From the NCBI GenBank assembly GCA_905178155.1, contig CAJINV010000006.1, positions 1,067,516 through 1,115,826 of the forward strand: a stretch of DNA of 48,311 nucleotides. The letters are read 5' to 3'. This document shows, piece after piece, positions 194 to 22,968 of this stretch. The DNA comes from Amoebophrya sp. A120 (lineage: Eukaryota; Protista; Dinoflagellata). Below the pieces are notes generated by a model that did no database searches, was not told the origin of the DNA, and was given only the letters and a program-made list of their open reading frames with translations. Every line of letters begins with the position of its first letter. Within the stretch, counting starts at the first letter, position 1. Made by a program: the position numbers and the translations under genes.

Positions 194-3100
194 GTATTTG
201 AAGAGGCGGATGGACGTCGACAGTCCAGACGAGGGCGGAATCGAGGACTGCGTTGAGGAGGGTTCGTCGCAGGATGTGAAGAGTGGGGCTGCAGCAGCTG
301 CATCGACCCCGGGGCAGCCATCGTCGCAAGCAGATATTCTGGACACCACCGTAACATCTTCAACCCCGGCCGACTTTGACATCGGCGCCGTGCAGCTGGA
401 CCCGCTGGTGTGGAAGCAGGATTTGGCCCAGCAGAGGGGGATGTGGACGGGAGGTGATGGGGTTTTTCACAAAGTGGAAAATCAAAAGACCAGCGGAGGA
501 ACAACAGGAACATCAGGTACTAGCGCGAACAAAATGATGAACAACGCGAAGTGCAGGAAAAATAGATCTGTTCGTAGAGGTCTTCTCGCGCCGTCTGATG
601 ATCAAGAAGAAGAAGACTATTTCCTCCTGTCCGAGCAAAACCGCAAGCTCTACACGTCCTTCGGCGAAAACAGCAGAGAGGCGACAGAGCAGGAAGTTTC
701 CAGCCAAACCCAAAGTTTCCGGCGGGCGCTGGAGAGTGTTGACGGGGACAACTCATTTCGGGAAGCCGAGGCGTTGTCGGCTCTCGGGTTTTACCAGGAT
801 GCGGTGAAGGGAACGGATATTTTTACTGTTGATGGCTCATCAACAGCAGAGCAGCCTAGTTACGATCCGTCCCCCCGCCGAGGCAGATTTCTCCGGCCTG
901 TGCAGCAGCCTGGAGACGATTCTCTTCGGGTTGGTTATCAACTGTAAAAATGTCTGGGTCTGGAAGATTGCCGGCTTTGTCATGCACATTTTGCATGACT
1001 CCTCAAGTCTGTGATGCATGCCCTAGCATCACGGATTTTTAGAGGGCTTCCTGATGCCTATTCCGCATGGCAAATGCTCTTTCCGTACTGCAAAATTTGG
1101 ACTCTCTTGGCTGCTCATGCAATACAGATTTTTTTAGAATCCAAAATCAGCAGGATAAGTTGGATTCTTCCAGACCCAGACATTTTTACAGTTGATATTG
1201 GTGCCGCAGCTGCAACCGGCATAGAAACCTCCGTAGAGGGCAAAGCGAAGTCGGCTCTGCGCAGGTTAGGCGAGGACGAACACGGGCGAGTAACCGATTG
1301 GCGGTTCGTTTCCTTAGCAGAAACCTTCCGAGATTTCGAGTTCGTTTCCGCGGCGGAGACTGATATTGACAGTGAAAGAACTGAAAACAACAGTAAGGAG
1401 AAGCAAGATCATGGGTCGAAGAACGAAAAGAAATCGAAATCCACTTCATCCCAGGACCTAGTAGAAGAAGGTGACTTGTTATTGTCCCCCCAGAGCAGAC
1501 GCACCCTGCAGACCGTCCGTCCCCCGAACCCCTTCTGCGACGGCCCACCGCCCGCTGGCGACTGCACAATACCTCTAACCGACGAAGATAAGTGCACGTT
1601 TTATAACAATCTTTTCCAGTCCACCGTCGCGGTTTCCACCGACACCACCTTCGACCCAAATTTCCAATCCAGAGGATTTACCCAGGTCGACACAAGTGTC
1701 GAGTTCGGGTTTAAGAATGAGTTGAAGCTCAAGATGAACGCGCCGAAGGGAAAGTTGATCAAACTGATAATATATCAACTGCAAATGTCTGGGTCTGGAA
1801 GAAGGTTTCCAGACTTGTCATGCAGGTTTTCCATGACCTTGACCCATGAGGTCTGGTATGTAGGACATAGCATGACAGATTCTGTGATAGTTCTATGATG
1901 CCTATTCTGCATGAGAAACTGCATCTCGATTAGCAGAATTCCTGGAAGAAGTGTTTGACGAAGAAGGGAGAACAAATAGAGAAAGACTGCAAAAAGCGGA
2001 GGCTAAGCTGCGCACGAGAATACAAGGCTATACAAGGGAGGGGACATAGACGCAAGCTTTCGGGACTACGACCACCGGACGGAGGTAGACGAAATATACC
2101 AAAAGGAGGCCGGCCCACCAGTGACGGGATACAGGAGAGGAGAAAAAGTCACAACAGGGCAAGGGAAAGAGAAGAAGGGCGAAAAAACAAGAAAGACGGA
2201 ATTTCGGCACTACATGGGAAAGCTTCCGCACGACAACAAGAGAAAATGGGCCCTAGCGGTTCAATATGTGGACGACGGGACTACTGTCCTGAAGTTTTTT
2301 GTAGAAGATATAGAAGTGGTAGCGGCAGCTTTGAGAGCAGCAAGCTGGGCGCGCCAAAAAATCTATGAAACAGAAGGACAATTTTTGGCGCCCATGAAGT
2401 GCGAACTTGCCACGTCGCTGAAAGAGGCAGGCTTTCCAGCCTTTTGGAATTATGTTCGAAGAGAAGGACTTCCTAAAGATCTTAGGAATAAGGATAGTGC
2501 CAACGAACAAGGAGGGACAGCGCAAGGCTCTCAGGGGCCAAGTTCAGCAGAGCATAGGAATAGGGCAGCACCTGGCGTGCCAGGTCATGTCAAGACGGAA
2601 AAAACTAGAGGGGGCGGAGCTGGTGTGGATAGTCCAGGCGTTCTCTGTATCGTCGATGATATATTTTCTACCGGTGACGCAGCTCTATTTCGACATGCAA
2701 GACTGGGCGACGATGCTAGGGGAAATATCGCTAACAACAGCAGAGACGATAGGGATGACAGAGGAAACGGCTGAAGAACTGATGAGAAAGACGAACACAA
2801 ATGCAGAAACCTTCTACCGTGTGGCTTTCGGGGCGAAGATGCTAGGAATTACAGACCCATTCACGCTGGGGCTGAAAACACTAAGAGCAACAGCCCAAGC
2901 AAACGACTTGACAGACCCGGGGAGTTTCATCCAAATGGCAACAATGCCGCTCAAAATAGTAGGTGAATCGAAAGCAGGAATAGCAAGAGCCGTGGAAAGA
3001 AAGATCATGAAGAGAAAAGAAGCTGGCATAGCATTACTGCAGGCACTCAGAGACGGAGCATCGGTAAGGTTGTCTGCGGGGAGCGATCTGCGGGGGGTGG

Positions 3101-6100
3101 GAATAGTAAGAAAAACTAACAAAGTAAAGCCGCAGATGGTACAAAGTCAGCACGTGCGCAGATGCGACAGGAGTCTGCTTGCGGACAAAATAAAACAAGG
3201 GGGGAAAGGCAAGAAAGGGCAAAGTGACTACATGGCGAAGATATGGGTAAAACACACGGAAAAGGAAGAGGCCACGACGGTAACAATAGAGGAATGGAAA
3301 GGGAAAGAAGAGCACATGGCAACAATTGAAACGAGGCAGGATCACCTAAAGACAGAAGTTAGGACAGAAGAACGAAAATTCGTAGCGTATTGCAATAACG
3401 CCATAAGAGCGATAGAGATGGTGAAGAAGCAGCAACGCGAAGGGAGTGGAGGGGTGTGCGTGTGCTTGCTGGATTGCGACGAGATGAAAGAGAAAACGCG
3501 GGGGCTCCTGCGGAAAGAACAAGGGAGAGCGCTAGAGCTGCAGGAGGAAATAGAAAAAGCAGAGGAACAGATCCCGGGATTAGCAGCAGCCAGGCGCTGG
3601 GGGAAGCAGAACGCGCCCAAAACCCTCGCAAAGAGAGAAGCACAAGGGGGCTATACAGAAGTGATACCCTTGAAGGTGGCAAACGTATCGAAGCACGACG
3701 ACGAATATGCCGAATGGGTTCAGTACGATTTCGGGGCTAAAAATGTACCGACAAAACCGGTCTGGGAATGGCCGGAAATCAATGCCAAAAATAGAAAGAC
3801 AAGTGTGCATCTACCGGAAGACTATAGGAGATGAAAAGAAAGAAGGGCAGAAAACGGAGAAGGGAAGCGGTGACGGCGGGGACGACAGAAAGAAAGGCAG
3901 CGCAGGAGAGAGGAAGGGGAAGGGGGCAGGCAGCAGTGCGAAGGGAAACGCTCGCTGCGGAAAAGGCCCCAAGGGGAACACTGCGCCGACAGACACGAGC
4001 AGGGAGATAGGCAGCGGGTCATTAGCAGAAACAATCAGAAAAATGGTAGAAGGGGAAAAGATAAGAGCACAAAAAGAAGGAAGCGAAATGCTGCAGAGGG
4101 CGCTGGACATAATAGGAAGAGCCACAGACCTACTAGAAACAGCCGAAGACGTTCCACTAGAATCCCGCGCGACGTCGAGCAGCAGCACCAGGAGAGACGT
4201 GCCGGAAATAACAGAAGAGCGAAATGAATCAAAAAAAGAAGAAAAGGACGAAACAGAGGAAGATGCGTATTTCTACCCGGCGCAGGAGTATCAGGGAAGC
4301 CGCCCAGGATATGTGTACAAACTTGGGCATTTTGGCATGGGGTATTATAAGGATCAAGGACCGGAGGAGGCAACGCGGGAGATGTTTCAAAAAATTACGA
4401 TAGGGGGGCCAGGAGGCAAACTGCCCAAGAGGGAAGTCTCGAAAGAACAGAAAACAGCGAGCAAAGAAGTCGCAGGAGATGCGACGCGACATGAGAAGAA
4501 CACGCAGCAAGTGCGCCAAGTGCCGGAAAAGGAGGAGGAAACAGAAGCGACAGCACGAGAAGCAGCAGAACCAGCTGGAGAAGGGGGACTTGGAGGACTG
4601 AGGAAGAAAATCGCTAAAGATATAAGCGAAACAGAGATGGCAAAAGAAGATAAAAAGGAAGAAAAAAGATTCCCAACGCTGGAGGAGCTGAACGAGAGGG
4701 ACCGGAAGCGGGACCGCGAAGAGGCAGCGGAGCGGGAAGACGAGCGCAAGCGGCAGGAAGAAAGGAGATCCATGAAAAGACTGAAGTATGAAAACCCATT
4801 ACAAGATGAGTTAGCCCAGATGTATAGGAACACGCGCTGAGAAATAATGATGAAGGAAATGTTCAAAAATGATGAAAAGAAAGGGAACAGAGAACGAAAC
4901 AGAAGGGCGCATAATGGGGGCGCAGTGTTCTGGGTGTCGGCGGAGGGGAGAGGAAGCAGAGGAAAGAAAAGGAAGAGAAGAAAGAAAGTGGCTCCCTTGG
5001 TCGTCACAGCTAGCCTGCAAGGGCTCCGTTTCCGCCAGCTGAAAGGCACGGCGGTGCTAATCGTCTCGTCCTCGCCAGCCGATAGGCACGGCGCTGCTAT
5101 CCCGTCGTCGTCATTGCGTCCCTTTTACTAGTAGGTGGAAACAGGGTTGCTAAGTTAAAGACTGCGCTAAGGCAGCGCCCCCCTTCCCCAAGGGGCCCCC
5201 CGGGGCGGGCGCGGTGGCGGCTCTGCTAACGCGGAGCTTCAAAGTCCGACTCTACCTATGCGCATAAAAAGTAAGGGCGCGCGGAAGCAGGTCGGTAAAG
5301 TGCTTGAAAGGGGCATGCTTTGGGGTTGCCCGTCATCGTGATAGGGTCAACGTGTGTGACCAATAGACCCCCTGTATATCATAGCGCGCAACCGACCACA
5401 AAAGCAGTAGCGTTTGACGTTTGTAAGAATAACCCCGCAAGGCAACACTGGAGCTCCACCTTGCTCGCGGGCTTGGATGGTAAATCAGGTCAGCCACATC
5501 TAACGCCCACTGGCCGTATACACGCGTAAGAAATCGGAAACGGTTCAGCGGATGCGGTCGGGTGGTACCTGTAGGACGTGGAACGGGTGTCCACCTAGGG
5601 GTATTGGCAGAGGCTAAATCTGTTCTAGCGCCACGGTATTGGCAGAGGCTAAATCTGTTCTAACGCCACCCTGACAGGAGTCAAATGCCAAAGCGATACG
5701 ATGCGACTAGGTCGCACGTGGACAGCTTTTGGTAATCATGCAACACAGATTTCTACGTGATTCAGATTTAGCATTACAAGTTCCAACCTTCGAGACCCAA
5801 ACATATTTGCAATGCATATGATACGGAACGTGGAGTTACCGGTAACTGGCGGCGAAACGCTGTTCGACTTGACCACCTTCTTCCGCGGGCAGATCCAGGA
5901 CCAGAGTCTCTCCTGTTGCCGGCCCGGGGGGACGGTTAATCCTTCTACGCCGTTGATTTCCTTCAGGATAGCAAGAGCTCTACCGATCTTCATGGCGGCG
6001 AACAAAAACGAATTTAGGAATGACCCAGACAGGTACCCTGTGGAAGCGGATTTACCAATCAGATTTGGTGACAATAGTTTCATCGAGTTCAAGTTCATCG

Positions 6101-9100
6101 CGTCCGGGCCGGTGGCGCCGGGGAATGTTTTGGAGATCCAGGGGCCCGCCGGATACCGGTTTGTCCCGGATTTTTTCCAGCTGCGGGATATGGGCCCGGA
6201 GGGGTTCTGTCCCCCCCCGAAGCCGGGGGACGAGGGGTGTGCCTACCCCTATTTGTCGTTGACGGTGAATAGGATTTTGGACAACGGGATGGACCAGCCG
6301 AGGTTGATTCTCACCATGGACACGAAGGACGAAATTTGGTTGAAAATGTACAGGACGATCAACATGGTCACCGTCGAGAAGAAGGAGTACGACGCAACGG
6401 ATCCGGCGAATGTGTATTTGTTAGAAAGAGGGTTGATCGGGGACGATTTGGTGGTGGATGTGAACGCCACGGAAGTTACAAACGTTCTCCCCCCGCCAAG
6501 CTCCATGCCCGATAACCAGATCTACTTTGGCAGGAGGTACGCATTTATGCATTGCAAAAGCATCGTACTAGTATAAACCGCAATACAAATTTCCTTAGCA
6601 TTAGAAATGGAATTTGTAATGCGGATTTGCCTTTCCAAGACCCTCCGGTTTGTTTGAGAAACATAGACCCTCCGGTTTGTTTGAGAACGGATACTATCCC
6701 TTTCCAAATCAAAACACATTAGGACCCGGGGGGACAGGAAGAGCCCCCCGGTAGCGCTAGTCTCACATGGGTGCACACATAAGGACGTTGACGGAGAAAC
6801 ACACACACACACGCAAAAACACGTCGGCCAAAAACAAAAATAAAATGCGTCCTGCACAAACTGCCCTCACTCACTCACCGGGTGGATGCGCCGCCGAGGT
6901 CCGCAGATAGCTTATTGAGAAAAAGAATAAGACTAGTAATAGCTTAGTAAGAAAGAAAAAGATAGAAGTCGCAAAAACTACTACTAATGTTTTTGTGCTA
7001 GAATAGCCGCGCCGCTGAACAACGGGAGACGGCCTGTCCGGTGAGTGAGTACGCCGTCAACTGCTCGCCGGGGCGCTGCGTGGAAGGGCAGCGTCGCCGC
7101 AAGTCGAGCCGGGGAACTAGTTTCTTTGCTTTCGACTGCCTTTTATTTTTTATGTTCCCCGTCATCTCAATTCCCCCTTAACTTGCCGCCTTACTCTTCA
7201 CGGACATCTCGTGGATGACATCAGCGCGTAGAACGGTTCGAACCAGCCTCGGGCTACAAGGCGACAGGTAAACCATCCCTACGCCCTCCGCTTTGACCTT
7301 GACGAAACTGACTACCAAACACTCTGGGGATTTCTATCAGCAACAGCATTGCCGACACCTAGGGCCACGCCACCGCGCCTTCCGAGGGTAGATCAGACGG
7401 ACCACAGAAGGGCGCTGCGAGGTGGCAACGACATCACTGAAGCGGGAGAGCGGATACAAGGCCTTCGCTCAACTGTGTGGTGTGCGTTGTTTACTAGTCC
7501 TAGTTTCATCGTCCGCGTGTTACTAGCGTCCTGACCCTTCAGGTCGTCCCTGCCGCCGGTGGTCACGTCCGCGTGGCGCTATCAGCGAATCAGCGAAAAT
7601 AGGTTATCTCTCTCTCTCTCTCTAATGCGGATTTGCCTTCAGAAAATGCATGACTGCGATTACTACGAGTGCGATACTTTTGCACAGGATAGCATTGCAG
7701 GCGAGGGTACAGGGACCGCAACAGGCGGCGGTATTATAAAGTTTTTTTGTTGTTGCTTGTTCTTTCCAGCATGACAAAATGAGTCTTGTCTTCGAAAATA
7801 AAGTCTTGCATCACAGACTACACGACATGCGATCCGTTCCAAACCATACCAAAACAGCCCCCGCCCAACCACCAGTTCCAGATCAAATTCACAACCTTAG
7901 TCGCGGTCAACAACGGGGAATATCCAAATGACCTCGGCCCCAGCCCAGATTTCAACATGACCCACTGCATCCCCTTTCGAATCAGCAAATCCATCCTCGC
8001 GTTCCATGACCCGGACATCACCTATCCGCTAGAATGGCAGTCCTTCGTCGCCGCAGATTCCTTCCTCGACGTGAAACTCGAGTTCCCCCGGAAGTTCCCG
8101 CAGGATCTAGGGTTGACAAACCTCGAAGTCTACCCGCCTTCTTCCGGGTTTTTCCTCCCGAGAGGGCAAATTTTCAGCGACCGACAAGAATATTTACCGT
8201 TGCAGTTCGCTTCCATCACGGTGAACAAAATCCGGCCGTTCACGGCGCCGGTGGAAATCAACGGGACGACGTTATACCCAGCGACGAAGTACGTGCAAGC
8301 GCCGGGGGGCGTTATCAAATGCAAAAATGTCTGGATCTGGAAGAGTGTAAACTTGTCATGCAGGTTTTCCATGACCCTTGAAGTCTGGAATGCGGGACCT
8401 AGCATGACAGAGTCTGTGAGGTCTCTTTCATGCCTATCCTGCATGAGAAAATCCCTCCCAACTTGGTCAAAAGTGGACAGCTTTTGGCACTCATGCAACA
8501 CAGATTTTTGCATGATTCGGATTTAGCATGACAAGTTGCAATCTTCCAGACTCAGACATTTTTGCAATCCATAGGCGTGAATCTGAAACTAGTCTGCGAC
8601 CGGAACGACTCAACCCCGATAAACAAAGACGTCGAGCTATTATATGTAGAAACGTCCCCACCCCATAGTCAAGTTGGGATCTTAGCAACACAAATCTAGA
8701 AGTTTTGGGAGCCTCGCATGACAAGTTGCAGTTCGTAGTGTACTGCAGGTTCGTAAGGACAGCGGCATCACAAATCCATCTGCTCATCCTGTTCCCGGCA
8801 TTACAAATCCCAAAACACGACTAGCAATTGCCTCTCATGGGGACCCGCATTACAAATGTTTCTGTAGATGCAAATCTGCATGACAACTATGGGGTGGGGA
8901 CGTTTTTACTCAGCATACGAGCCGGTCCAGAACTACCACTGGTACATCATCGGGAACGCGAAAAACCCGACGACCGGGGTGGTTTCTACTCTCGGTTGGG
9001 AGCGGTATGAGCCGAAGGATTTACTCGTTTCCCAGTTCTATGCATTGCAAATATGTCAAGGAATGCAAACTTGTGATGCGCATTTCACAACACATACAAA

Positions 9101-12100
9101 TCTCTCATGCCGCAGCGGCAAAAGCTGCCCACTTTCTGACACCAAAGTGGGGAGTTTGTCATTCGGATTCGGCGTTCCGGAAGCTTTTCGAAATCTGTGA
9201 TACCAGAGCTTCCATGCCAGACCTTCTGCGTCATGCAAAAACAGCATGACTCTTCCAGACCGAGACATATTTGCATTTCATAAGTTCCCGGTGCAGTGGA
9301 ATCCAGAGACGAAGTGGATCGCTGGGTCGCAGGTGGAAGCCATGTTTGAAATCAAATTCAGAATACCGCTGCCCGTCGGTGGCGCAATTTACATCAAAGC
9401 GCCGCCGAATTACCGGTTTAGGTGCCCGATTACGAACATCATGGTCCTATCATATGTAAAAACGTCCCCACCCCAGAGTTGTCATGCAGATTTGCGATTG
9501 CAGGAAGATTTGCAATGCGCATCTCCATGAGAGGCATTGCCAGTCGTGTTTTGGGATTTGTAATGCTGCAAACAGCATAAGCAGATGGATTTGTGATGCG
9601 GTTGTCCTTGCTAACATGCACTACTTACACTACGGACTGCAACTTGTCATGCGTTGCTCTCAAAACTTCTGGATTTGTGTTGCTAAGTTCCCAACTTGAC
9701 TATGGGGGTGGGGACGTTTTTACATATGATAGCTCCCGGAGCCGAGTTACATGCCAATTTGCGTGTTTAACCCCATCCATCCTCTGTTGCAGGGTTGTGG
9801 CAGGATAGAACGGGATCTGCAGCAGGTGACTTTTGACATAAACCGTTTGGAAAACAGGATCGAGTATCTGAAGGAACTGAGCAAAATCAAACCCCAGGAG
9901 ATGACGCCGCAACAGAGATTGACTTTCATCTCCGAAACGGTGAACGGGACGAGGAGGGAATTAGATGTGAAAATGCTGTACAAGAGGGAATTAGAGGAAA
10001 TCATGGAGTACGTGCCGCCACCAAGTTCTGAAACCGATTCAACCACGATCACAACTTTGACGATAACCAGTACCGCGTCTGGCGGGTTCTCGATCACAAA
10101 TACTCCGCCTACAACCACGACAACAGAGCCGCCCACAACCCTCCCCCCGAACGGCCTGGCGACGACCGCCAAGCCGGAGGGGAAGCCGCCGAGCGGGTGC
10201 GAGCTGCGGCACGAGGTCTTGTTTGCTTATCAGACGACGGATTACCCGCTATGAACTGCAAATGTGTTTGGGTCTGGAAGAATTATGCAGAAGACTTCTC
10301 ATGATGCACATTTCGCAAGACCCATGATGTCTGTGATGCATGCTCTAGCATCACAAACTTTTTGAGGGCTTTCTGATGCGCATACTGCATCGTAGCACAA
10401 AATCGACTCCTCTTGCTGGTCATGATGCAATACAGATTTTTTTAGAATCCGAAGACAGCATCAGAAGTTGCCTTCTTCCAGACCCGGACATATTTGCACT
10501 TCATACCCGCCGGTGTTCTACGAAACGAAGATGACCCGGTCGATCCGCGATCCGATCACGGGTATGCATTGCAAAAGCATCGTCAGGAGAGGTCCTAGGA
10601 GTAATCTTCGCAATCATGCATTGCAAATCTCTTTCGCAAGGGAAATCGGCATGACAGATTCCATCTGTCATGCTGAACTAATTTGTAATGCAATCACTAC
10701 TAGAAGCACAAGCAGCGCGACACTTTTGCAATGCATAACTGGCATCCGGCAGGAACGGTCGCAGCAGGTGGCGATCCCGATCATGACCTACAAGTTCAAC
10801 ATCCGGATGGAACTGCCGGATATGCATTGCAAATATCGATCTGTGTCTGGAAACTTGTGATGCTAATTTATGAATTGCGGGGATCACACTGCAATAGGCA
10901 GCCGCGCATGACAAGTTTCTGGGCTCCTTTGTGTTTCGCTTTCCGCATGACAAATAACTACATTTGTGCATGACAGGCAAGCGGCTCTTTATTTCCTGCT
11001 CCCGCATTACAGGTTCAAGACTCACATATTAAGACAAGCATGACAAGCTTGCACTCTACTTCCAGACCCGGACAACATATTTGCATTGGATACCGGAAGC
11101 GGACGCGCAGCTCCCGAACAGCAACCGGTACAACGATTTCGACGTGATTATGCTGGACCGGATGAAGAGAACCATTGACAACAACGTGGCGGTATCCTGT
11201 GCAAAAGTGTCGTACTCGTATTGCAGTCATGCATTACAAATCTTTTTCTTAACGTAAACCCGCATTACAAATTTTCTCTCTCATGCTGAGAGAATTTGCA
11301 ATGCATTTAAATACGAGTACGATACTTTTGCAATGCATAGGCGGTGCCCGTCCCCCAATTCTACACGGACTACAAAGTGACCAACTTCATATGCATCGCA
11401 AGAGCATCGTGCCAAGTAGTAGCAAGCGCATGACAGATTTACTGCGTAGCATGTTGACAAATGGACTTTGTAATGCTGATTTGGCTTCGCAAAGAACATT
11501 TCTCTTGCAGGAATGCGATTAGTGGCGCGTCGTGCACGATGCTCTTGCAGTGGATACTTCACCTTTTGGTACGACCACGAGCGGACGCGGTTCCGCACTC
11601 AGGAGGAAAATAAAGTGATCAACGGGATCGACGAGGCCTATGACCCCTATCCTATGTAAAAACGTCCCCACCCGCCCATAGCTGTCATGCAGATTTGCCA
11701 ATGCAGGAACATTTGTAATGCGCACCGGCATGGGAGGTACTTCCAATCGTGTTGTGGAATTCGTAATGCTGTAAACGGGATACGTGCGTGGCGTTGTGAT
11801 GCGGCTGTGCTTGATAAACTGCACTCCAAGACACAGAGGAACTTGTCATGCGTGACTCTCAAAAGTTCTGGATTCCTGTTGCGAAAGCCCCATCTTGATG
11901 ACTATGGGGTGGGGACGTTTTTGCTCAGCATAACCCGCGCGGAAAAATCATCCCCTTCTATGTCACGATCGCCATCAACGAGCGGATTCCGGCGGGGCGG
12001 GGGTTCAAGGTGATGGAATTTACCGTCCCGGACAATGGGTTTGGCATGGAAATCGCCTTGCCGACGGATGTCCAAGTTCTCTCCGAGGCCGTGCCGGTGC

Positions 12101-13841
12101 GAAGCTGGGGGTGGGATCCGAATTCGGCGCGGATAAAACAACTCTTCTTCAACATGCCGGACATTGACGACATCGACTACAATGGGATCCTATCAAATGT
12201 AAAAATGTCTGGGTCTGGAAGAATGCAACTTGTCATGCTAAAATGGAAGCATGCAAAAATCTGTGTTGCGTGATTACCAAAAGCTGTCCACTTTTGACCT
12301 AATCGAGAGGCAGTTTCTCATGCAGGAGAGGCATGATAGAACTCTCACAGAATCTGTCATGCTCTGTCCTACTTGCCAGACCTCATGAGTCATGTAAAAT
12401 CTGCATGACAAGTCTGGCATTCTTCCAGACCCAGACATTTTTACAGTTGATAGATCCCGGCCGGGCAATTCGCGTTCTCCATCCCCATGAAGCTCCCGGA
12501 CACCACCGAGGCGATTTACGGGCTATCAAGTGCAAATATGTCTGGGTCTGGACAAGCGCAAACTTCTGATGCGCATTTCAGACGACGCAAATATCTGTCA
12601 TGCATGGACAGCAAATGTCACCCATTTCTTATCACTGAGAGTGGGGATTCGTCATGCGGATCAGGCATTGAGAATCCTCCTCAAAACCTGTGATGCTAGG
12701 GCTTGCATGCCAGACTTTCTTGATCAGGTAAAAACAGCATGACAAGTAGCATCTGCACTCATCCAGACCGACACATGTTTGCAGTTGATACGGGCTGCAA
12801 GGCAACAACATTCAGGAGTTCACGTCGCAGGACCGGAATGGGGAGTACATGAACTTCTTCAAAGTCAAATTTTGCAACGACTTTCCGTTTATGCAAGGCA
12901 AAAGCATCGCAGCGTTGTAAATCGCATGACAAATTTTCTCAGCATGATGAGAAATGCAATTTGTAATGCGGATTTAACTTGACAAAAAAATTTGTAAAAT
13001 TACAATTTTTTTTGTCAAGTTAAATCCGCATTTATGCATTGCATAAATGCGATTAGTACGAGTACGAAGATACTTTTGCAATGCATACCCTTCTGCATCG
13101 AGAAACTGGCAGAGTTCAAGGTCCCCGGGTTTCAGTTCAACGACGTCACCAGAGACGACTTCATCGTGCAGCCGGACGGGTTATCCAGTGCAAATATCGA
13201 TCTGGGTCTGGAAGAGTGCAACTTGTGATGCTGTGTTTGGATTCTACAAAAATCTGTATTGCATGAGCAGCGAAATACGGAGTCCACCTCTTGCTCTTGC
13301 TACGCGAAGAGGGCGTTTGTAATGCGGGTTCGGCATGATCAAGACGGCCTCAAAAAATCTGTGATGCTAGGGCGTACATCACAGACATCATGGCTCACGC
13401 GAAACGTGCATGACAAGTTCGCATCCTTCCAGGAGACCCAGACATATTTGCGATGCATACGGGTTTGGCAGCGAAAAATACAGTCGGACGACTGATCGGG
13501 TGGTAATATCCTGTGCAAAAGTATCGTACTCGTAGTGATCGCAATCATGCATTACAAATCTCCCTCTTAACCGAAATCGGCATTACAAATTCCATTTTTC
13601 ATGCTGAGGGAATTTGTCATGCGATTTATATATACTAGTACGATGCTTTTGCATTGCATAGGTAAAAACGCTGGCTGATTTTCAAGTCGACGAAGGCCCG
13701 CAGTCGTCGGGGGCGACTTCTCGTAGAGGGATTAAATGGAGCAGCATCAGTGGCATCCTCGCTGGAGGCGGTATTTGGTGGTTGGGTACAACTTTGATGG
13801 TAGCGCTTTCGTACAGCCATCATGTTCATGCGGTTGCTTAG
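194..13841 (+). CDS. Gene 1 (5'-partial): large multi-exon, >=1500-aa putative GPI-anchored/surface protein of unknown family
   Basis: Exons 194-935, 1203-1772, 5824-6545, 7697-7730, 7804-8312, 8579-8637, 8923-9038, 9288-9447, 9737-10249, 10511-10562, 10743-10820, 11098-11192, 11345-11389, 11562-11647, 11938-12190, 12458-12523, 12796-12889, 13093-13181, 13465-13506, 13666-13841 join in frame (4500 nt from 195 to TAG). Recurrent 'I.I.aP.gyrF' beta-rich motifs, Thr/Pro linker, C-terminus ...QSSGATSRRGIKWSSISGILAGGGIWWLGTTLMVALSYSHHVHAVA*. Confidence 0.85.
936..1197. mobile_element. Introner family A
   Basis: TIR TATCAACTGTAAAAATGTCTGGGTCTGGAAGA; DR TTGGT at 931-935 and 1198-1202; removal restores frame. 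Confidence 0.95.
1936..4840 (+). pseudogene. Reverse transcriptase (palm/thumb) plus long charged C-terminal extension, broken by frameshifts
   Basis: Frameshifts at G-run ~2040-2043, T-run 2442-2445 (deleting one T gives EAGFPAFGIMFEEKDFLKILG) and ~3825; ORFs 2121-2774, 2452-3834, 3707-4840. Confidence 0.7.
5600..5669. repeat. 35-bp tandem duplication in the retroelement 3' UTR
   Basis: GGTATTGGCAGAGGCTAAATCTGTTCTARCGCCAC x2. Confidence 0.9.
6546..7691. mobile_element. Introner family B interrupted by a SINE-like insert
   Basis: TATGCATTGCAAAAGCATCGTAC ... GCGATACTTTTGCACAGGATA; DR GCATT. Confidence 0.9.
6634..7622 (+). mobile_element. Non-coding SINE-like / non-autonomous non-LTR element
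   Basis: 17-bp TSD TAATGCGGATTTGCCTT (6617-6633, 7623-7639); (TC)8 tail 7607-7622; 23-bp duplication near the 5' end. Confidence 0.8.
7731..7803 (+). other. Probable canonical GT-AG intron (73 nt)
   Basis: GTATTA...TAAAG; phase-0 join gives QQAA|SCITDYTTC. Confidence 0.6.
8313..8573. mobile_element. Introner family A
   Basis: TIRs; DR GGCGT; frame restored. Confidence 0.95.
8638..8917. mobile_element. Introner family C (AAACGTCCCCACCCC TIR)
   Basis: DR CGAGC; frame restored. Confidence 0.95.
9039..9282. mobile_element. Introner family A
   Basis: DR AGTTC; closely similar to 43553-43804. Confidence 0.95.
9448..9731. mobile_element. Introner family C
   Basis: TIR TATCATATGTAAAAACGTCCCCACCCC; DR GGTCC/GCTCC. 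Confidence 0.95.
10250..10505. mobile_element. Introner family A
   Basis: DR CCCGC. Confidence 0.95.
10563..10737. mobile_element. Introner family B
   Basis: TATGCATTGCAAAAG TIR; DR ACGGG/ACTGG. Confidence 0.9.
10821..11092. mobile_element. Introner family A variant
   Basis: DR CCGGA. Confidence 0.9.
11193..11339. mobile_element. Introner family B
   Basis: DR GGCGG. Confidence 0.95.
11390..11556. mobile_element. Introner family B variant
   Basis: GCAAGAGCATCGTGC inverted repeat; DR CTTCA. Confidence 0.9.
11648..11932. mobile_element. Introner family C
   Basis: DR ACCCC/ACCCG (synonymous Pro). Confidence 0.95.
12191..12452. mobile_element. Introner family A (opposite orientation to 8313-8573)
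   Basis: DR GATCC. Confidence 0.95.
12524..12790. mobile_element. Introner family A
   Basis: DR CGGGC. Confidence 0.95.
12890..13087. mobile_element. Introner family B with internal palindrome
   Basis: DR CCGTT/CCCTT; inverted repeat 12965-13032. Confidence 0.9.
13182..13459. mobile_element. Introner family A
   Basis: DR CGGGT. Confidence 0.95.
13507..13660. mobile_element. Introner family B
   Basis: DR GGTAA. Confidence 0.95.
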
Positions 13842-14663
13842 GAAAGAAGGAGCTGGAAGACGAGGAAGCTCAACTTTTCAACATTTATTCCAAGAATCTA
13901 GTCGTGGCTTTTCTTGTTGCGTTCACGACATGGTAGGAGCAAGAGCAAGTTCGCCGTGTATATTGTTTTTTTGGACGCAGATACTAAGTGCGTGAATCAA
14001 GCAAGAAGCACAAGAGCAACCAAGTTGAAGAATATCCAAGATTTTAGCAATAGCAACCAAGTTGAGGCGTGAAATTATCAGCATACTTAAAGCAGACCAA
14101 GAAAGTCGAGTCTCAAGAAAGGAATTAAACCAAGTTTCCGTTTGCAACTAAATCTCCTACAACAACTCGTATGAACAATTAGCTTCACAACAACATGCAT
14201 AAAGCTCTAACCGCTGCTCTGCGCAAAAAAAGCACCGCAAGCGCTTCGGTCTTCCTACGAGGACCCACCAGGATGGAGACAAAGTGACAGAGACAAAGCT
14301 TCTCTCGCTCCACCTTTGTGCTGCATCGTAGGTAGATGCGAAGAGGTTGATGGTCATGCTCCTGCGACATATCAGATTCAGATTTTTTTAAAGGGAGCTG
14401 GTCTACGACCGCTCTCAACATATTGTAGAAGCGCAGCTACAGTCAGACATGATGACCGCGGCAGAAGCTGCCAGGGTGGTCGTGTCGACAGTTCAGCAAA
14501 CCAAGTTTCCGTTTTTCTACACTTCTATGCAATAAATCCGTTTCGTAGTGGTCGCATTTGTTTCTAACTAAGTAATACTATCACTTCTCCTTATTCAAAT
14601 TTAACTATGATGGTGCTGGTACAGCAAATTGCTGGACACGATGAAATAGAATCCGTTTCTGTG

Positions 14664-15394: not shown

Positions 15395-18300
15395 ATGCTT
15401 TTTGTACCTGCTGCTCCTGCTCCTGCTAGCGCAAAAGGAAAACGAAAAACATTCAGCATGTCCTTAGCCACCTTGTCGCCGCGTTTCTCGTTCTCGCGCG
15501 AACGCTTCTTTCGCCGCGGCGCTAGTTCTTGCAGTTCATTGTCACAAAAATGGCTGGCTTCTTCGGGTCTACTTCTACTTGTGGTTCATCACGACAAGAC
15601 CGGGCAGCTGCTAGGAGTGCAAGAAGCTTTGGCGGTCTCGTTCATGTCCAAGATGAAGATGAAGCTGCAGCAGAACAAAAAGAAAACCTCAACATTTGCA
15701 TCGAAGATCATGAAGGAGCGGCTTCCTGCTCGGGGCCTCCCAAGAAGTGGAAGAACGGGAGCACAGGAGCTACACACAACAGGTGGGAGCCACGATCATG
15801 AGGCCTTCTTCTACAACAAGACTAGCTCAACATCGGTGGAACAAGATGAACAAAGCTTCTTTTTGCAAAAGCACGAGGCTACCTTGAGCGGCGCGACTTG
15901 TTCGCTTTCGCGTGCGGAGCGTGGAAGGAACGGTATCACACAGAAAAGTACACCGAACCGAGTGCACCAGAGTCAGAAAATAAAAAAATTCAGAATCTGT
16001 TGTTGTTATGCTGCTACTTTACATAAATTGGCGCCATTCCAAAACTCTAAAAACAAGAACTCAAACTCTGTAGATACACAGAGTACTAGCGAGGCATTTT
16101 ATTTTTTGGTGTGCAAAAGAAAAAAAAATACAATTTTTACTGCGCGAAGGCTAGGAAAAGGGTGTTAGAATGAAAGTAAAAGTATCATCTCACGACGTCG
16201 GACGGCCAACAGGCACTTTTTTTTCCCGCAAACAGAACGGCATGACATGATAGTTCTTCTCGAGATACCCTGGTGAAAAGTACCAATGGGTTCTTTACTT
16301 TTCTGTACAATAAACGGAGGGCCTGGGGGCTACGGATACTGCCGCAACGCCAGCAGTGGCATGGTCAAGAGCGATTGCAAGCTTTGCATGAGATGTAGCG
16401 GTCGCAGTTGGCTGAAATACATCGATACAGCCACCGGAAGTGCGACGTCTTGGCAGCTGGATACGATGCCGCGGAGTTGGAGGGAGTTGGAGTTCAACAC
16501 GGGAACAGGGGAGCTGTTGAAGGGGGGCTGTGATATTCCAAGCGGGACGTTGGGAAAGATGAACCACAAGGCATGCCTGGAGAAAAATCTCGACAAATTG
16601 TACGAAGACCACGCTTGGAACGAGCAGGATCTAGACATCGACACTCCTCGTCTCGTTAATTTGAAGGTGAACGGCGATGTCTGGAGGCATTACACGGCAG
16701 AGGAGAATGTTAGATGCGAGGCACGGATGGCGATGAAGAAATCCGGAGCCTCGGGCTCCGTAGAAGTATGCATTGCAAATATGATGTCTGGGTCTGGAAA
16801 CTTGTAATGCTGCGTTGGGAATAGTGAAAAATGCCCTGTAATGCACAGCCAAGCATGAAAAATATCTGCGCTTCTTTGCGTTGCGTTTTTCTTTTTCGCA
16901 TGACAAACTGCGTTTTTGCATGACAAGCAAAAGGGTCTGCTCTTCTCGGACACGCGTCACAAACTTTTTAGTCATGCCAGACAAGCATGACAGACCTTGC
17001 ATCCTTCTAGACCCAGACATATTTGCACTTGATAAGAACAGCGCTTCGACAACGGCGGCTGGGAGACAGCTCCGAGTGGCAGTGTCGACTGGAATATGAC
17101 AGTGCACAACTCCCCCTCCCCCTCCCTTGTCATGCAAATTTCCCGAATCCAGGCTGTGCCTCTTGTCACTGTTTGCATGACAAGTTCTGGTAGCCCAAAT
17201 AGCACTACACTCCAGTTTAAATCTGTCATGCAAAGCCCGCATTTTTGCGAATGCTCGCATTGCCGTTTATGCTTATACAAATGAGGGGGAGGCGGGGGAG
17301 TTGTGCACTGTCATATGGAAGACACAGATGGCCCCCGTGGGGTGGCACAAGGTGGAACAGTGGAAAGAGATAGGCGATGAACTCGAGGAGGCCGCGCAGC
17401 GACTGGGCGACAATTTCTTTGTGGTCAGTTTGTCCGCCTTTGCTCCCTCCTGCGGTAGCGAGAAGTACTGCGGGGATTCAGACCACACATGGGATAACGA
17501 TGAAAACGATTTTGCGGCTCATCGCAACAACTGTGAGTGCAAGGCGTGTACGCGGTGCAAACTATAGTGTGTCTAGGTGTGGAAAAAATAAAACGGGCCT
17601 TGTGCTTCTTGTATCTTTAAAATATAAATATATAAAATTGCTTGTATAGCATTGGTGCTGCTGGCAAGTCTGCATTGCATAACCGACAGGGGCGGCGGCG
17701 CTTCCTTCGTCATCCAAAAGCGAAAGCGCAGACGTTGGTCGAGCTGTTTATGCAAATTGATAATTGGCACTACTCGTACTACCTATCAAGAGAGAAACTT
17801 GTCATGCTTTGTTGCATCATGTGAGTATGTCTGACCCATCCACTATTTGTCCGCATCGCAGGTGTGATATTCCAGACCCAGACACATTTGCATTTGATAG
17901 CGTGCTGCGAGAAGGTGGAGAGGGATGGCAGCTGGTTGGCCACGGTCGACAAATGGCGTTGCGGGGAGAGTGGGTTTTACTCGATCGACGACTATGCGAG
18001 GGAACAAATCAACAGCAAGATCCAACGCGCGAGCATCGAGTTATGGCACTCTCAAACGTTACACTGTCTATTGTCCTCTTATGATATTGACTTGTCCTGC
18101 AAAATGAAAATTGTCAGCAGCCTCGACAAGATTTTGAAGATCAAATAAAGCTACTTCGCGTGACAAATAATTTTGGAAGGGCTAAGAGGCATTGCAATCT
18201 GTGCCGAATTTGTATGTAATACGACTTCGACTTGCGCGGCAGGGCAATAAAGCGCCCTTCCTTTGTTCAACACTTTTGCTACTGTTGCATCTTCTTCACA

Positions 18301-21300
18301 AATTCGTGTAAAGAACAGCGACCAATGTAAACGTTTGTTGAAAACTTGATATGAAGGGGTAGAGCCCCCGTCAACTACATCCTCACCTACATCCTCAACT
18401 ACATCCTCACCTTCGCCTTCATCTCGCGCTGTCACAGAAACGCCTTCCACCACGCCGGCACCGCCTGCGGTTTATGCAATACAAATTTCCCGTAGCCGTA
18501 CATGTACAAGGTGCATTACAAATTTCACCAATTTATTGGAGTGTAACATCACTTGTAATGCTAAAATAGGACCACGGCTAAGTTTTGTCATGCAGAGACC
18601 GGATTTGTACGTGTTGTACGGGAATAAATTTCCTGTGGATATAGTCACGCCCGAGTCCACCACTACTTCGCTGCCGAGGACAGGTGAAATAAAGTCCGAC
18701 GAATCCTTATCTTGTGCAAAAGTATCGTACTCGTACAAATTGCTTTTATGCCTTACAAAGAAATATTTTTGTTAATAAGGCAAAAGCGCATTACAAAGGC
18801 CTAGGCCTAGGCTATGCTACCCAATGGGCAGCTAGGGTGTCTGAAATTAGCTTATACTTTTTACACGCGCCGCGGGCTAGGGTGGGTCATTAACAAAACG
18901 TGAGGAAAACCGGGCCTATCATTTCGCGCCTGCGCGGTAAAGGTTTAAGTACATAAAAGTGCATCAGACAACCAAACCTTCAAACAGGCCCCGCGGCAGA
19001 ATCCGTTTTCCCCTTAAATAAATGAAATTCTGTACAATCGCCTGGCGAGACGCAAAAGTAGATGAACCGACTCTCAATAAATAGCTGCCCCGTGGCGCTT
19101 CTTGAGTTTGTTTAGTGTGGCCGTAGTCCAAAAATCATTTGTTTTTTCTAAGCACAGCTGATGACAGCGCTCGTGGTCGTGCATAGAGTTTTTCACTTTT
19201 GGGTTACGGCCTCTCTGAGGAGGTCTGTCGACGTTGCTCCACTCAGGAGCAGGCTGTTCTTTTCTGTCACTGACAGGCGGTTCTGCGACCGCAAGTCTCG
19301 GCAATTCCCGAGCTCTTGTTTCTGGTGCGAACTTCGTACGGAATTCTCTTGGTGGGTTCATCTAGTGGTGCGCTGCGCGTTTCTTAACATTTTTTGAGGC
19401 CGTACGATTAATGGGCCCCCTTTTCGATACCGAAAAGGGGGGGGTAGGTACGGTCGGTCGTCTGGCCGTATCCAAAAGCGACCACTTCCCTCGGGACCCG
19501 ACCAGTTTTCGAATTTCAAAAATCAAAATGTCAGCCCATGACCCCCCCCCGCCCCGAAGTAGTTTTCTGCTTTGTTGACCACTAGTTGCGGCGCGGCTTT
19601 ATCAGCGTATAGCCCCTCTATTGCGGTTTCTGGGGTGTGGTTAGCAGAGGAACAAGCACACAACGCAATTTTTTTTTGGGGCGCGCGCTGCGCGCGCGCG
19701 CGTCGCGATATGCATACAAAAGTAAAGAAACTTCGGCGCGCGCGCTAAATAAATACACGCGCCACGCAGCGGAACGCATGGCGCATACGTGGTTACAATC
19801 CGCCGGCGCGGTGCAGCAAACCATGATCATCTGCAGGACAGATGAAGATCGAGCCCGGTTTATTATCGTCGTCGGCTCTGCCTCTCCGCCTGCACTGGGG
19901 CCGAGCATGGTGCGCGAGGTTTGTTGGCCCTTCTTCCGCCTTCAAGCTGAATAAGAAGCAAAGGGGCTTGCGACTTGGAATAAAGTATGCCGGAAAAGGA
20001 AAGAGCGCTTTGCCGCGACAACAACCATCGCCATTACCCATCCTGCGCGGGGTAGTGTGCAGAGGGTTAAAAAGTGGGCTAACTACAAAAAAAAACGCCT
20101 TCGGCTTCGCAGTAATTTGTAGCGCAGCACTGCGCTACAAGCACCCGGCGCGCCAAAGTGGTTGATGTGGGCATCTCAATTACTGAGATACCCGCTTCAA
20201 CAGCCCGAGAGCAGTCTTGGTCGCGCAGTTCTGCATTAGAAGTTGCGCCATGATCTACCGCGCCGCAAGTCTGTTTGTGCAGGAGAGTGACTTCTCAGTC
20301 GATCTACAAGCTTCCCCCTGAAGTACTGCGAAGCACCTCTTCTGCTTAAAACATGCTCAGTCACTCAAAATCAAATAAAAGCAAAACAGTTCTGCATGCT
20401 TTTACTTGAATGAGCTGCCGAGCTCCTACGATCTACTTACAAACTGCGCCCAAGCTACTGCTCTTTTTTTCGAGCAGTGGATCGGCGGCATACAACCAAG
20501 CGGGATTGCAGTCAAGAAGTTGTAGATAATTCATTGCGAGGCAGCTGCGCTGCTGCTCCGTGAAAGGTAGCCGTCTCCCTTTTGGGGAAAGAATGGCCCT
20601 CGGCTTCATTTTGAGAAACAGAAAGCACGTCTGCTTCGATTGATTTACTTCCCTTTTGGCGACGGAATTCTCTTGGTGGGTTCATCTAGTGGTGCGCTGC
20701 GCGTTTCTTAACATTTTTTTTCTTTCCTCGTTTCCATTTCTTGTCCTGTCGGTGTGCTTCGCTCGATCTCTAATCGGTTTTCGTCATCTCCCATGAGAAG
20801 AGCGACCTCTGTCGATCGTCTTCGTCTCGCCTTTTTTCTCGCTTTTTTCTCGACTGTTTTAGTTAGTTAGGCGAGCTTTCTTGCGCATACGTACGTAGAT
20901 CTCCTAGTGCCTTGGTACTTCGAGGTTTAGGGTCGGAACGTTCTCAGCACTGCTGAAGCTTAAGAAGAAAGGGGCGTGCACGCTCCGGCCTTCAGTTTGC
21001 TCCGCCTTTATCTTTTTGAAATCGCTTTACTATAATCCTCCTTTTTGCTTGCTTCCTGTTCCCCGGGCCCAACTGGCACCAAGCAGGTTTTTTCTCTCCT
21101 AGGGTTAGGCTTAGTTAGGCCGCCACCGCCGCCGGCACGGGATGGCTGCCGACGCGACCGTCTCACCTTCGATCCAGCCACCACCCTCATCTGCTGCTCA
21201 AGATCGATCCAGAAAGGGTTTAGTTTAGGTTTCAGGGTTTAGGAAGCAATCTTAACATTTTTTTTCTTTCTCTCTTTCTTTCTTTTGTACTTCTGGGTCT

Positions 21301-22968
21301 GCGTCCCCTCGTACCAACGGGCCTCTCTTCCTCCGTCAGCGGGGTTGTCAGGTTTTTGCGGTCTGGCGACCTACGTTCGCTAGTTCGGGCCGTTGTTGTC
21401 TCCGACGGTTTCGAGTTATAAAAGTTATGGTTTGTGTGACAAGGAGGCAACACGGGCCTAGCGAAGCGGCCCGGGTAGCCAAGGCAGGAACACAAAGCGG
21501 ATTTTTATAAAGAGATACCTCTCTACCATCCGGTCGAATATTGTTGTGGTCCCGGGCGGAAGACCTTAAACTCGACCCAAAGAAAGTAATGCCCTGCGGT
21601 TCAAGTTTCAATAAAATTTTTTTCCTTCCCTTCCCTCCCTTTTATTTCTCGTTACTGTTGTCGAGACAAAGCCCTTATCCCGCGGGGTAAGGGAGTGGGT
21701 TGTCAGGTTTTTGCGGTCTGGCGACCTACGTTCGCTAGTTCGGCCCGTTGTTGTCTCCGACGGTTTCGAGTTATAAAAGTTATGGTTTGTGTGACAAGGA
21801 GGCAACACGGGCCTAGCGAAGCGGCCCGGGTAGCCAAGGCAGGAACAAAAAGCGGATTTTTATAAAGAGATACCTCTCTACCATCCGGTCGAATATTGTT
21901 GTGGTCCCGGGAAGACCTTAAACTCGACCCAAAGAAAGTAATGCCCTGCGGTTCAAGTTTCAATAAAATTTTTTTCCTTCCCTTCCCTCCCTTTTATTTC
22001 TCGTTACTGTTGTCGAGACAAAGCCCTTATCCCGCGGGGTAAGGGAGTGGGTTGTCAGGTTTTTGCGGTCTGGCGACCTACGTTCGCTAGTTCGGCCCGT
22101 TGTTGTCTCCGACGGTTTCGAGTTATAAAAACGTGAGGAAAACCGGGCCTATCATTTCGCGCCCCACCCTAGAGGGTATTTCCACCCTAGTGCCCTGCGG
22201 CTCGCACTAGCGTGGTGCACCGAACTAGCCTGGGTCTAGACCACGGCCAGGCTAGGTTTCTGCATGCATATTTGCAATAATTACTACGAGTGCGATACTT
22301 TTGGTTTTGCGCAGGATAATCAATTGACGGAGACTACAACCAGGATGGTGATGGTACCCGTATCCAAGTGATGAAAACATCAAGTGTTAATATTTGCTCC
22401 GCCACAGAAGATGAAAGTAGTACGGAGTTTTATTTCGATACAAGAAGAAGATGAAGAAGTACTCACAGCGCAGTACGCGCACGCCGGGGGTAGGAATTTG
22501 CTGCTCTAGTATTTTTGCGTGGCAGCATGGTGTTTCCACGCATATTCGAGATGATTTTCGATTTCGTCCTTTGATGGACATTATAGTGAGCACGAAACTG
22601 GTGATAAAAAAAATTGCATATAGCCTAAGAACCATGTAAAGAGATGAACGCATAATTCGCTGTGGGATGGGCAGACGGACGGGGACACTTGATTTTCTTG
22701 TTTTCATAACCCTTTCTCCGGCGATGCGGGTGGTGTATCCTGGGCAAAAGTATCGTACTCGTAGTAATCGCAGTGATGCATTACAAATCTCGTTCATAAG
22801 GCAAATCAGCATCACAAATCCCATTTGTTATGAGGAGCGAATTTGTATTGCAATTACTACTAGTACGATACGTTTGCAGTTCATATGAAGCAGGCGCGGG
22901 CGATACTCCTCGGAACTTCGGCTGATGCGGGTGAAGTTGCCACCCAACGGGTTGGTGTGTGCTGCTGA
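15395..22968 (+). CDS. Gene 2: Cys/Trp-rich putative secreted protein with Ser/Thr/Pro tail (intron-rich paralog of 27299-28885); 3' end uncertain
   Basis: Exons 15395-15933, 16318-16766, 17040-17094, 17321-17548, 17905-18041, 18357-18472, 18647-18707, then tentative 22324-22360, 22714-22735, 22891-22968; aligns with paralog (CSGRSWLKYIDTATG, MAPVGWHK, ELEEAAQRLGDNF, SLSAFAPSCGS, CECxACC). Confidence 0.75.
15934..16312. mobile_element. Old/degenerate introner
   Basis: TATCACACAGAAAAGTA / TACTTTTCTGTACAATA; DR AACGG; frame restored. Confidence 0.8.
16767..17034. mobile_element. Introner family A
   Basis: DR AGAAG/AGAAC; absent in paralog. Confidence 0.9.
17095..17315. mobile_element. Introner family D
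   Basis: Perfect TIR TATGACAGTGCACAACTCCCCC; DR TGGAA; single TGGAA in paralog. Confidence 0.95.
17549..17899. mobile_element. Degenerate introner family A (TAC start)
   Basis: DR GCGTG; same position as 24266-24528; single GCGTG in the intron-free paralog. Confidence 0.85.
18042..18351. mobile_element. Degenerate introner family E
   Basis: Left end TATGGCACTCTCAAACGTTACA resembles 39469; DR decayed (CGAGT/TGAAG); frame restored. Confidence 0.65.
18473..18641. mobile_element. Introner family F
   Basis: AAATTTCCCGTA TIR; reverse copy of 25670-25820; DR decayed. Confidence 0.8.
18800..22256. mobile_element. CTAG-rich inverted-repeat element, itself split by a 3.2-kb insert bounded by a 36-bp duplication
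   Basis: CTAGGGTG motifs at left and CACCCTAG at right; terminal hairpin 22225-22255; 36-bp DR at 18895-18930 and 22128-22163; 58-bp DR at 19338-19395 and 20662-20719. Confidence 0.65.
21342..22130. repeat. ~353-bp tandem repeat, 2.2 copies
   Basis: Units start at 21342, 21697 and 22049 (GGGTTGTCAGGTTTTTGCGG...), nearly identical. Confidence 0.95.
22361..22708. mobile_element. Degenerate introner
   Basis: TAT...ATCAAGTGT / ACACTTGAT...ATA; DR ACCCG/ACCCT. Confidence 0.55.
22736..22885. mobile_element. Introner family B
   Basis: TIRs clear; DR TGGTG/TGAAG. Confidence 0.85.

Follow-up and report, generated by a model that had tools for sequence, protein, structure and literature searches.

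Transposon-like introners of Amoebophrya sp. A120 are missing from probable transcripts of one gene in either orientation, with a cut register that appears to follow the transcript

How can introns be removed from a transcript whichever way round they lie, when spliceosomal introns are polar? The question is raised by a 48,311-nucleotide stretch of the Amoebophrya sp. A120 genome (contig CAJINV010000006.1, positions 1,067,516 to 1,115,826; hereafter the window), in which a first, sequence-only reading had picked out three pairs of reverse-complementary elements (8313/12191, 8638/9448 and 936/13182), had placed them in the same gene with its frame restored by their removal, and had taken this symmetric function as a sign that a paired stem in the RNA, or the ends of duplex DNA, are recognized. 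The elements are the TAT...ATA introners of Amoebophrya sp. A120 (Farhat et al. 2021, PMC7789003), and both they and introners that work two ways are already known. According to PMC7789003, the A120 repeats consist of TAT, seven looser bases and then As, the elements measure about 240 nt, the direct repeats measure 3-5 nt (5 bp in the legend of Fig. S19), and a hairpin joining the exon ends has already been proposed for A120 introners; the means by which tens of thousands of introns leave A120 transcripts with neither GT-AG borders nor a detectable U1 is posed there as a question.

The host gene encodes a 988-aa protein (P0001) for which no Pfam family was found, and the protein matches at 99-100% carry the name Amoebophrya sp. 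A120. Between 8313 and 13660 it holds 15 introners from at least three families, every family being present in both orientations (Table 1), and a 5-nt direct repeat flanks each of the 15 (perfect at 11, with one mismatch at 4). All six stretches quoted in the sequence-only reading have TAT...ATA ends and terminal inverted repeats of about 30 nt, at exact coordinates; the 23-mers quoted with them lie at 8465-8487 and 12277-12299. The elements are short and non-coding, with inverted repeats and a duplication of fixed length, as in a MITE (a non-autonomous DNA transposon). Once 35 nt had been trimmed off each terminal repeat, the interiors of the paired elements aligned far better with one of them reverse-complemented than as they stand (85% vs 58% identity for 8638/9448, 83% vs 59% for 8313/12191 and 73% vs 54% for 936/13182, against a baseline of 50-72% for an interior and its own reverse complement). 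The three opposite-orientation pairs are therefore real, and what had been called reverse complements are diverged family members lying opposite ways rather than exact reverse complements. Further opposite pairs in the host gene are 10250/13182, 11390/13507 and 12890/10563.

Table 1. Coordinates of the host gene, its ordinary intron and the introners discussed (positions in the window)
Feature	Position	Strand	Evidence or remark
Host gene, 988-aa protein P0001, function unknown	5992..13936 (end approximate)	+	Public 'unnamed protein product [Amoebophrya sp. A120]'
Introner, ~260-nt family, orientation A	936..1197		Removal restores upstream + frame; outside RNA-contig coverage
Introner with ~1 kb nested insert	6546..7691		Missing from P0001 at element + 5
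Ordinary GT-AG intron of host gene, start GTATTA	7731..7857	+	P0001 placement among candidate introns
Introner, ~260-nt family, orientation A	8313..8573		Duplication GGCGT/GGCGT; joined 8307>8574, skip 266 nt
Introner, ~285-nt family, orientation A	8638..8917		Duplication CGAGC/CGAGC; skip 285 nt
Introner, ~250-nt family, same orientation as 43553	9039..9282		Skip 249 nt
Introner, ~285-nt family, orientation B	9448..9731		GGTCC/GCTCC, mismatched; left copy kept for at least 2 nt
Introner, ~260-nt family, orientation A, opposite to 13182	10250..10505		Alignment and contig joints
Introner, ~150-nt family, orientation A	10563..10737		ACGGG/ACTGG; left copy kept for at least 3 nt
Introner, same orientation as 16767, opposite to 24266	10821..11092		Alignment and contig joints
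Introner, ~150-nt family, orientation A	11193..11339		Alignment and contig joints
Introner, ~150-nt family, orientation B	11390..11556		Alignment and contig joints
Introner, ~285-nt family, orientation B	11648..11932		ACCCC/ACCCG; left copy kept for at most 4 nt
Introner, ~260-nt family, orientation B, opposite to 8313	12191..12452		Alignment and contig joints
Introner, ~260-nt superfamily, orientation B	12524..12790		Alignment and contig joints
Introner, ~150-nt family, orientation B, internal insertion	12890..13087		CCGTT/CCCTT; left copy kept for at least 3 nt
Introner, ~260-nt family, orientation B, opposite to 936 and 10250	13182..13459		Alignment and contig joints
Introner, ~150-nt family, orientation A	13507..13660		Alignment and contig joints
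Introner in next gene, P0002	22736..22885		TGGTG/TGAAG; left copy kept for at least 4 nt (public protein model, not reads)

Removal was read from assembled contigs of four runs (X3-X6), which come from two samples of one study and whose RNA nature is guessed rather than on record. One contig of about 3.8 kb per run carried the joints, 15 of 20 being listed, and in each run all 15 junctions between 8313 and 13660 were joined at exactly the element plus 5 nt. The elements are accordingly removed in both orientations, as had been proposed, and none of the 15 is GT-AG at the register inferred below. Deletion of element plus 5 nt at all 15 yields an 817-aa plus-strand frame, whereas deleting +0, +1, +3 or +4 instead yields at most 304 aa; retaining a single element shortens the frame for 14 of the 15, only 10563 being read through. 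The spliced product matches residues 197-988 of P0001 (792 residues) with 0 mismatches, although P0001, whose model may derive from related data, is not treated as independent evidence. In the DNA-like run X1, contigs continue unbroken over the exon/element borders in 7666-8339 and 9695-10348 (depth 43-51, 0 differences), which disfavours the idea that duplex DNA ends are recognized, and no exact element skip is present among the 15 of 1950 joints listed for that run. A low-depth X3 contig (13284-13473; depth 3.5 vs 241) contains element and exon together. The raw RNA runs X9-X11 gave 62, 6 and 19 partial reads on the region, with no joints.

For two of the pairs, 8313/12191 and 8638/9448, the contigs and the 817-aa frame show that opposite elements share one gene and restore its frame; for 936/13182 this part of the earlier proposal is only plausible. 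P0001 starts at 5992 and the RNA contigs stop 745-779 nt upstream of 8050, while the host frame may extend upstream to about 200, giving a reconstructed 1481 aa, and 936 and 13182 lie in that frame only if the nested element at 1773-5818 is also removed. Its removal at element plus 5 leaves the host frame open by computation, the splicing itself being putative. The 1773-5818 element is an introner of the ~260-nt family split by a purine-rich insert of about 3.8 kb with frames of 470 and 388 aa; a Pfam search of these frames returned nothing above the cut-off, and the insert is a candidate for a larger mobile element.

The next gene (P0002; window 15395-22965, 573 aa, no Pfam family) contains at least 8 introners, among which 17549-17899 begins with TAC and 18473-18641 matches at only 2 of 5 duplication positions. 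At 18708-22318 an introner contains about 3.5 kb of nested sequence, including direct repeats of about 220 nt at 21342-22130. Both this nested introner and that at 6546-7691 are missing from the public protein models at element plus 5, and it would seem from these models that the ends alone suffice for removal of nested introners. Elsewhere in the window, two introners at 43253-43804 are separated by a gap of just 8 nt (43545-43552), which would make for an exon only a few bases long (the start of the first was read by eye); a 92-nt repeat occurs three times at 34344-36930 with spacings of 1086 and 1409 nt and is unrelated to the TAT...ATA families; a 39-nt coding tandem repeat lies at 28598-28792 within a 542-aa frame that has no Pfam match; and the octamer GGGAAACC is present seven times at the window start (1-57).

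Element statistics were drawn from the window and at least 143 loci (129 merged, 527 kb) of one metagenome scan, which was seeded on one repeat type and whose source may be another strain, its elements being at most 93% like those of the window; a viral contig collection searched for the elements gave 0 matches. Among the 459 repeat-only candidates in the window and the loci listed, a perfect 5-nt duplication was found at 308 and one with a single mismatch at 66, while perfect duplications of length 4 and 6 numbered 3 and 0. Candidates with three or fewer duplication matches (85 of 459), those without a confident strand (107 of 374) and two further rows were excluded. Host strand in the loci was inferred from reading frames with a codon model and without RNA; it was assigned to 267 of 374 elements and was consistent within all loci but one. 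Twelve families of 4-72 members accounted for 240 of these 267, and the 27 elements outside families of at least four were excluded from the family counts. Summed repeat depth reached 2.4e5, vs about 50 in X1, in keeping with families repeated genome-wide.

Counted family by family on this basis, orientation relative to the host gene is near random, about 50:50 over the 240 elements, which bears out the earlier view that either direction serves. Among the loci listed, the four largest families are split 36/36, 26/20, 11/16 and 10/14, and other families 13/7 and 4/12; the lowest p is 0.08, and none of the 12 departs from 50:50. Element pairs are likewise balanced among the loci listed, with 1091 in the same and 1107 in opposite orientation and no inconsistent edge.

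The position of the cut can be read where the duplication is mismatched, as the number k of left-copy bases kept in the message. The RNA contigs bound k at 9448, 10563, 11648 and 12890 (Table 1), and the public protein model for P0002 bounds it at four further junctions, where it is at most 4 at 16767, 18708 and 22361 and takes the lower bound given in Table 1 at 22736. Only k = 4 fits all 8 junctions, from which we infer an intron of the form N-TAT...ATA-NNNN, cut 1 nt upstream of the element and 4 nt downstream of it; k = 3 is excluded solely by junction 22736, in a modelled protein. Element 12890 is inverted relative to 10563 and 22736, but its k is likewise at least 3; therefore, the register follows the transcript without mirroring the orientation of the element. 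Each orientation thus shows the same ends with a cut that is polar to the transcript, which speaks against the symmetric mode of recognition first proposed.

A donor-side polarity was also seen in terminal variants. The search, which was blind to the terminal 7 nt, gave 24 elements with one terminal substitution, 4 of them unstranded by frame; in the 20 stranded elements, substitutions of the outermost base numbered 8 at the acceptor end and 0 at the donor end (p 0.008; three positions examined), or 9 vs 0 when locus strand was used. Given register 4, the upstream outermost T, with its 0 changes, is intron position +2, whereas acceptor positions 1, 2 and 3 vary in 8, 3 and 3 elements. PMC7789003 shows T at +2 in all dominant A120 intron ends of its Table S4, a table that is shaped by the choice of the aligner within duplications. 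Predicted AT-rich GT-AG introns, which are noisy and made without RNA, start with GTAT in 8 of 34 cases and with GTAA in 7 of 34, against 5.6% and 6.8% for internal GT. Additionally, where the two ends of an element differ at position 4, the C is on the upstream side in 72 cases and on the downstream side in 32 (p 1.1e-4 among 92 tests; seen on both host strands), or 32 vs 10 per locus. This preference for TATC upstream is a real, modest orientation bias, and splicing or insertion could be its cause; a public protein for locus L030 was sought as a source of position-4 junctions, and none was found.

One property of the duplications is unexplained, because a fixed register does not account for it. 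Their mismatches are synonymous in 27 of 44 cases (window and loci L004-L116), as if both copies were coding, vs an expectation of 35-41% with one neutral copy (p 0.0003-0.005). The non-synonymous mismatches are not unusually conservative (p 0.42), and codon scores did not distinguish the exonic copy of a duplication from the other. The excess could come from a cut that slides or from exchange with alleles lacking the intron.

The linear signals of ordinary introns were not detected at the inferred register. Only 7 of 267 elements are GT-AG among the loci listed, the bases at +1 and at -2/-1 do not depart from coding background (p 0.39 and 0.14), and there is no acceptor dinucleotide bias. In the active site of the spliceosome, G+1 pairs with G-1 or A+1 with C-1; the elements show no bias towards either pairing (p 0.39), which counts against a spliceosomal reading. 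Comparison of interior 4-6-mers in sense and antisense left no polar word after 120-790 tests, and branch-like motifs number 41 in sense and 45 in antisense across the 267 elements, although symmetry would mask a motif present in both arms. The donor- and acceptor-side end profiles agree at 29 of 30 positions, so that a reversed element has the same TAT-N7-AAA 5' end and the same TTT-N7-ATA 3' end, a situation that the sequence-only reading had itself named as refuting its proposal. The step from symmetric function to recognition of a stem or duplex was consequently mistaken in itself: two-way function needs no stem recognition, because the terminal inverted repeats keep the linear ends the same on reversal and two-way linear introners have been reported.

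The evidence on the stem is mixed. Pairing of the ends is predicted for 263 of 267 elements, with the terminal 3 bp formed in 183 of 267 sense vs 201 antisense folds and stem positions 4 and 7 paired in only 59% and 43%. Selection for RNA pairing gave no signal at positions 4-30 (324 G-U vs 309 A-C), nor did private wobble-making changes differ between stem and interior (odds ratio 1.19, p 0.5), both with low power. A G-U excess at stem positions 16-30 (191 vs 144, sign p 0.018) was rejected, as it is reversed at 4-10 and is absent overall and in private changes. Private changes are rarer at stem positions 11-30 than in interiors (0.026 vs 0.036, p 1e-4), equally in both arms, which is explained equally well by the needs of a transposase or by detection bias; at 31-45 nt they are rarer upstream than downstream (0.024 vs 0.042; p 0.007 in one bin out of five). 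In the few cases observed, short insertions or deletions lying between terminus and core did not disturb the element-plus-5 rule (8 of 14 candidates passed, 3 of these 8 being frame-shifting). Since there is no linear AG or polar signal and acceptor positions 1-3 vary, something else must place the 3' cut, and for this the stem is the candidate; the paired-stem idea of the sequence-only reading is retained for the 3' cut only, in the face of the negative G-U vs A-C comparison.

The explanation in which we place about half of our confidence is a relaxed U2-type spliceosome that takes the upstream N-UAU as its donor and leaves the 3' cut to be set by the paired ends. These non-autonomous transposon-like elements duplicate 5 bp of any target on insertion, and the transcript contigs lack exactly the element plus 5 nt, which restores the ancestral codons. 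The donor would be read as N-UAU, that is GUAU minus its G, with U at +2 as in GU introns; the catalyst would be the spliceosome core (U2/U5/U6 and Prp8); and the paired ends would place the 3' cut at 4 nt beyond the downstream repeat, the stem replacing both the AG and a U1-type definition. Orientation independence follows from the symmetry of the repeats, which present identical 5' and 3' ends and an identical stem either way, and the donor-only T, together with the likeness of N-TAT to the GTAT donors of the host, is what points to a spliceosome-like donor. The elements lack U2-type GT (GC, GA)/AG ends and, given register 4, have the invariant U at +2. PMC7789003 reports 83 of 89 spliceosomal proteins in A120 along with U2, U4, U5 and U6, U1 not being detected. 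A stricter claim, that the route needs just U+2 and the paired transposon ends, without G+1, AG, U1 or a branch consensus, is doubtful; under it, with the cuts 1 nt ahead of the stem and 4 nt beyond it, any 5-bp target and either orientation would give a scar-free intron, and in its boldest form it would involve a non-spliceosomal or rebuilt machine that has co-evolved with the transposon ends and renders the whole class harmless to genes.

An unlikely alternative, which corresponds to the stem idea of the sequence-only reading, dispenses with the spliceosome: an endonuclease and ligase, or a machine like that of euglenids, would be guided by structure and cut 1 nt ahead of the paired stem and 4 nt beyond it. 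It would make GT, AG and a branch motif unneeded, and it is in keeping with the predicted pairing in both orientations, the fewer private changes at stem positions 11-30 and the absence from protein models, at element plus 5, of elements with 1.1-kb and 3.6-kb interiors, as well as with the undetected U1 (PMC7789003) and with the euglenid introns with repeats and duplications that leave as circles (PMC11282704). It does not predict a donor-only invariant T or the resemblance of N-TAT to the organism's GTAT donors, wobble bias is absent, and transposase recognition would also conserve the repeats. Rather improbable as well is a relaxed spliceosome that uses linear ends only, with N-UAU as donor and a branch or ruler signal in the 3' repeat, the stem being a by-product of the transposon. 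Repeat symmetry would supply identical linear ends both ways, the failure to detect RNA-pairing selection agrees with it, and two-way introners of Polarella and Aureococcus use linear splice sites (bioRxiv 10.1101/2020.10.14.339549); against it, the acceptor side has no invariant base, indels between terminus and core leave element plus 5 intact, and branch-like motifs are not commoner in sense, with the caveat of masking by symmetry.

Two further accounts bypass splicing. Somatic excision, or an RNA polymerase that skips a cruciform formed between the direct repeats, takes up the duplex-end idea of the sequence-only reading; it would suit the transposon-like ends, the perfect direct repeats and, as a sliding join, the synonymous excess, and is very improbable in view of the unbroken X1 contigs, the X3 contig that contains element with exon and a register polar to transcription. 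Equally hard to credit is a reverse-transcriptase template switch over the hairpin in genes that are not truly spliced, for which hairpin plus direct repeat is a known signature (PMC4176328), since 15 of 15 elements are gone from one dominant contig, keeping any of 14 of them shortens the frame, elements with 2 or 3 duplication mismatches are also missing from the protein model, and most duplication mismatches are synonymous, as would be expected of functioning genes.

If a single rule, N-TAT...ATA-NNNN irrespective of orientation and target, holds, every insertion would be silent either way, which would explain how the elements could flood coding sequence. The rule makes the question of A120 splicing testable by mutation and lariat mapping, and with it annotated introns could be given definite ends. 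Neither counts of orientation nor a cut register for the A120 introners turned up in the text of PMC7789003, PMC9860276, PMC12130899, PMC11282704 and PMC12005148; Figures 3 and S19-S25 of PMC7789003 may show part of the register, and subscription papers and preprint supplements were outside the scope of this search. In the passages of PMC7789003 viewed, the word 'orientation' (four uses in the main text and three in the supplement) concerns genes.

Of the systems available for comparison, the A120 introners described in PMC7789003 are the same in organism, in the TAT-N7-AAA repeat, in the direct repeat and in size; the text there leaves the border unplaced inside the repeat and calls the splice sites 'variable', whereas a fixed register and a donor-only T are proposed here. 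Two-way introners are described for Polarella glacialis (classes 1, 2, 3, 6, 7, 8 and 10) and, with reference to Huff et al. 2016, for Aureococcus anophagefferens (bioRxiv 10.1101/2020.10.14.339549). As portrayed in that preprint, they are likewise transposon-derived, with duplications and either orientation, and they need GT/GC/GA and AG, supplied by the element or the target, and show an orientation bias; unlike them, the A120 elements use any 5-bp target and have no family-level bias apart from position 4. The nonconventional introns of euglenids (PMC11282704) share end-pairing inverted repeats, repeats resembling duplications and non-canonical borders; their motif is CAG/CTG, with pyrimidine|purine borders, they are excised as circles and they belong to an unrelated lineage, whereas the A120 elements have TAT/ATA with free border bases and an end pairing that is predicted. 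Finally, the introns of Fritillaria borealis are also reported to be transposon-derived and non-GT/AG and to be handled by an adapted U2 spliceosome (PMC11282704; bioRxiv 10.1101/2025.08.15.670264); their ends are mainly AG-AC and AG-AT, whereas in the A120 elements the +1 base and the last four bases are free.
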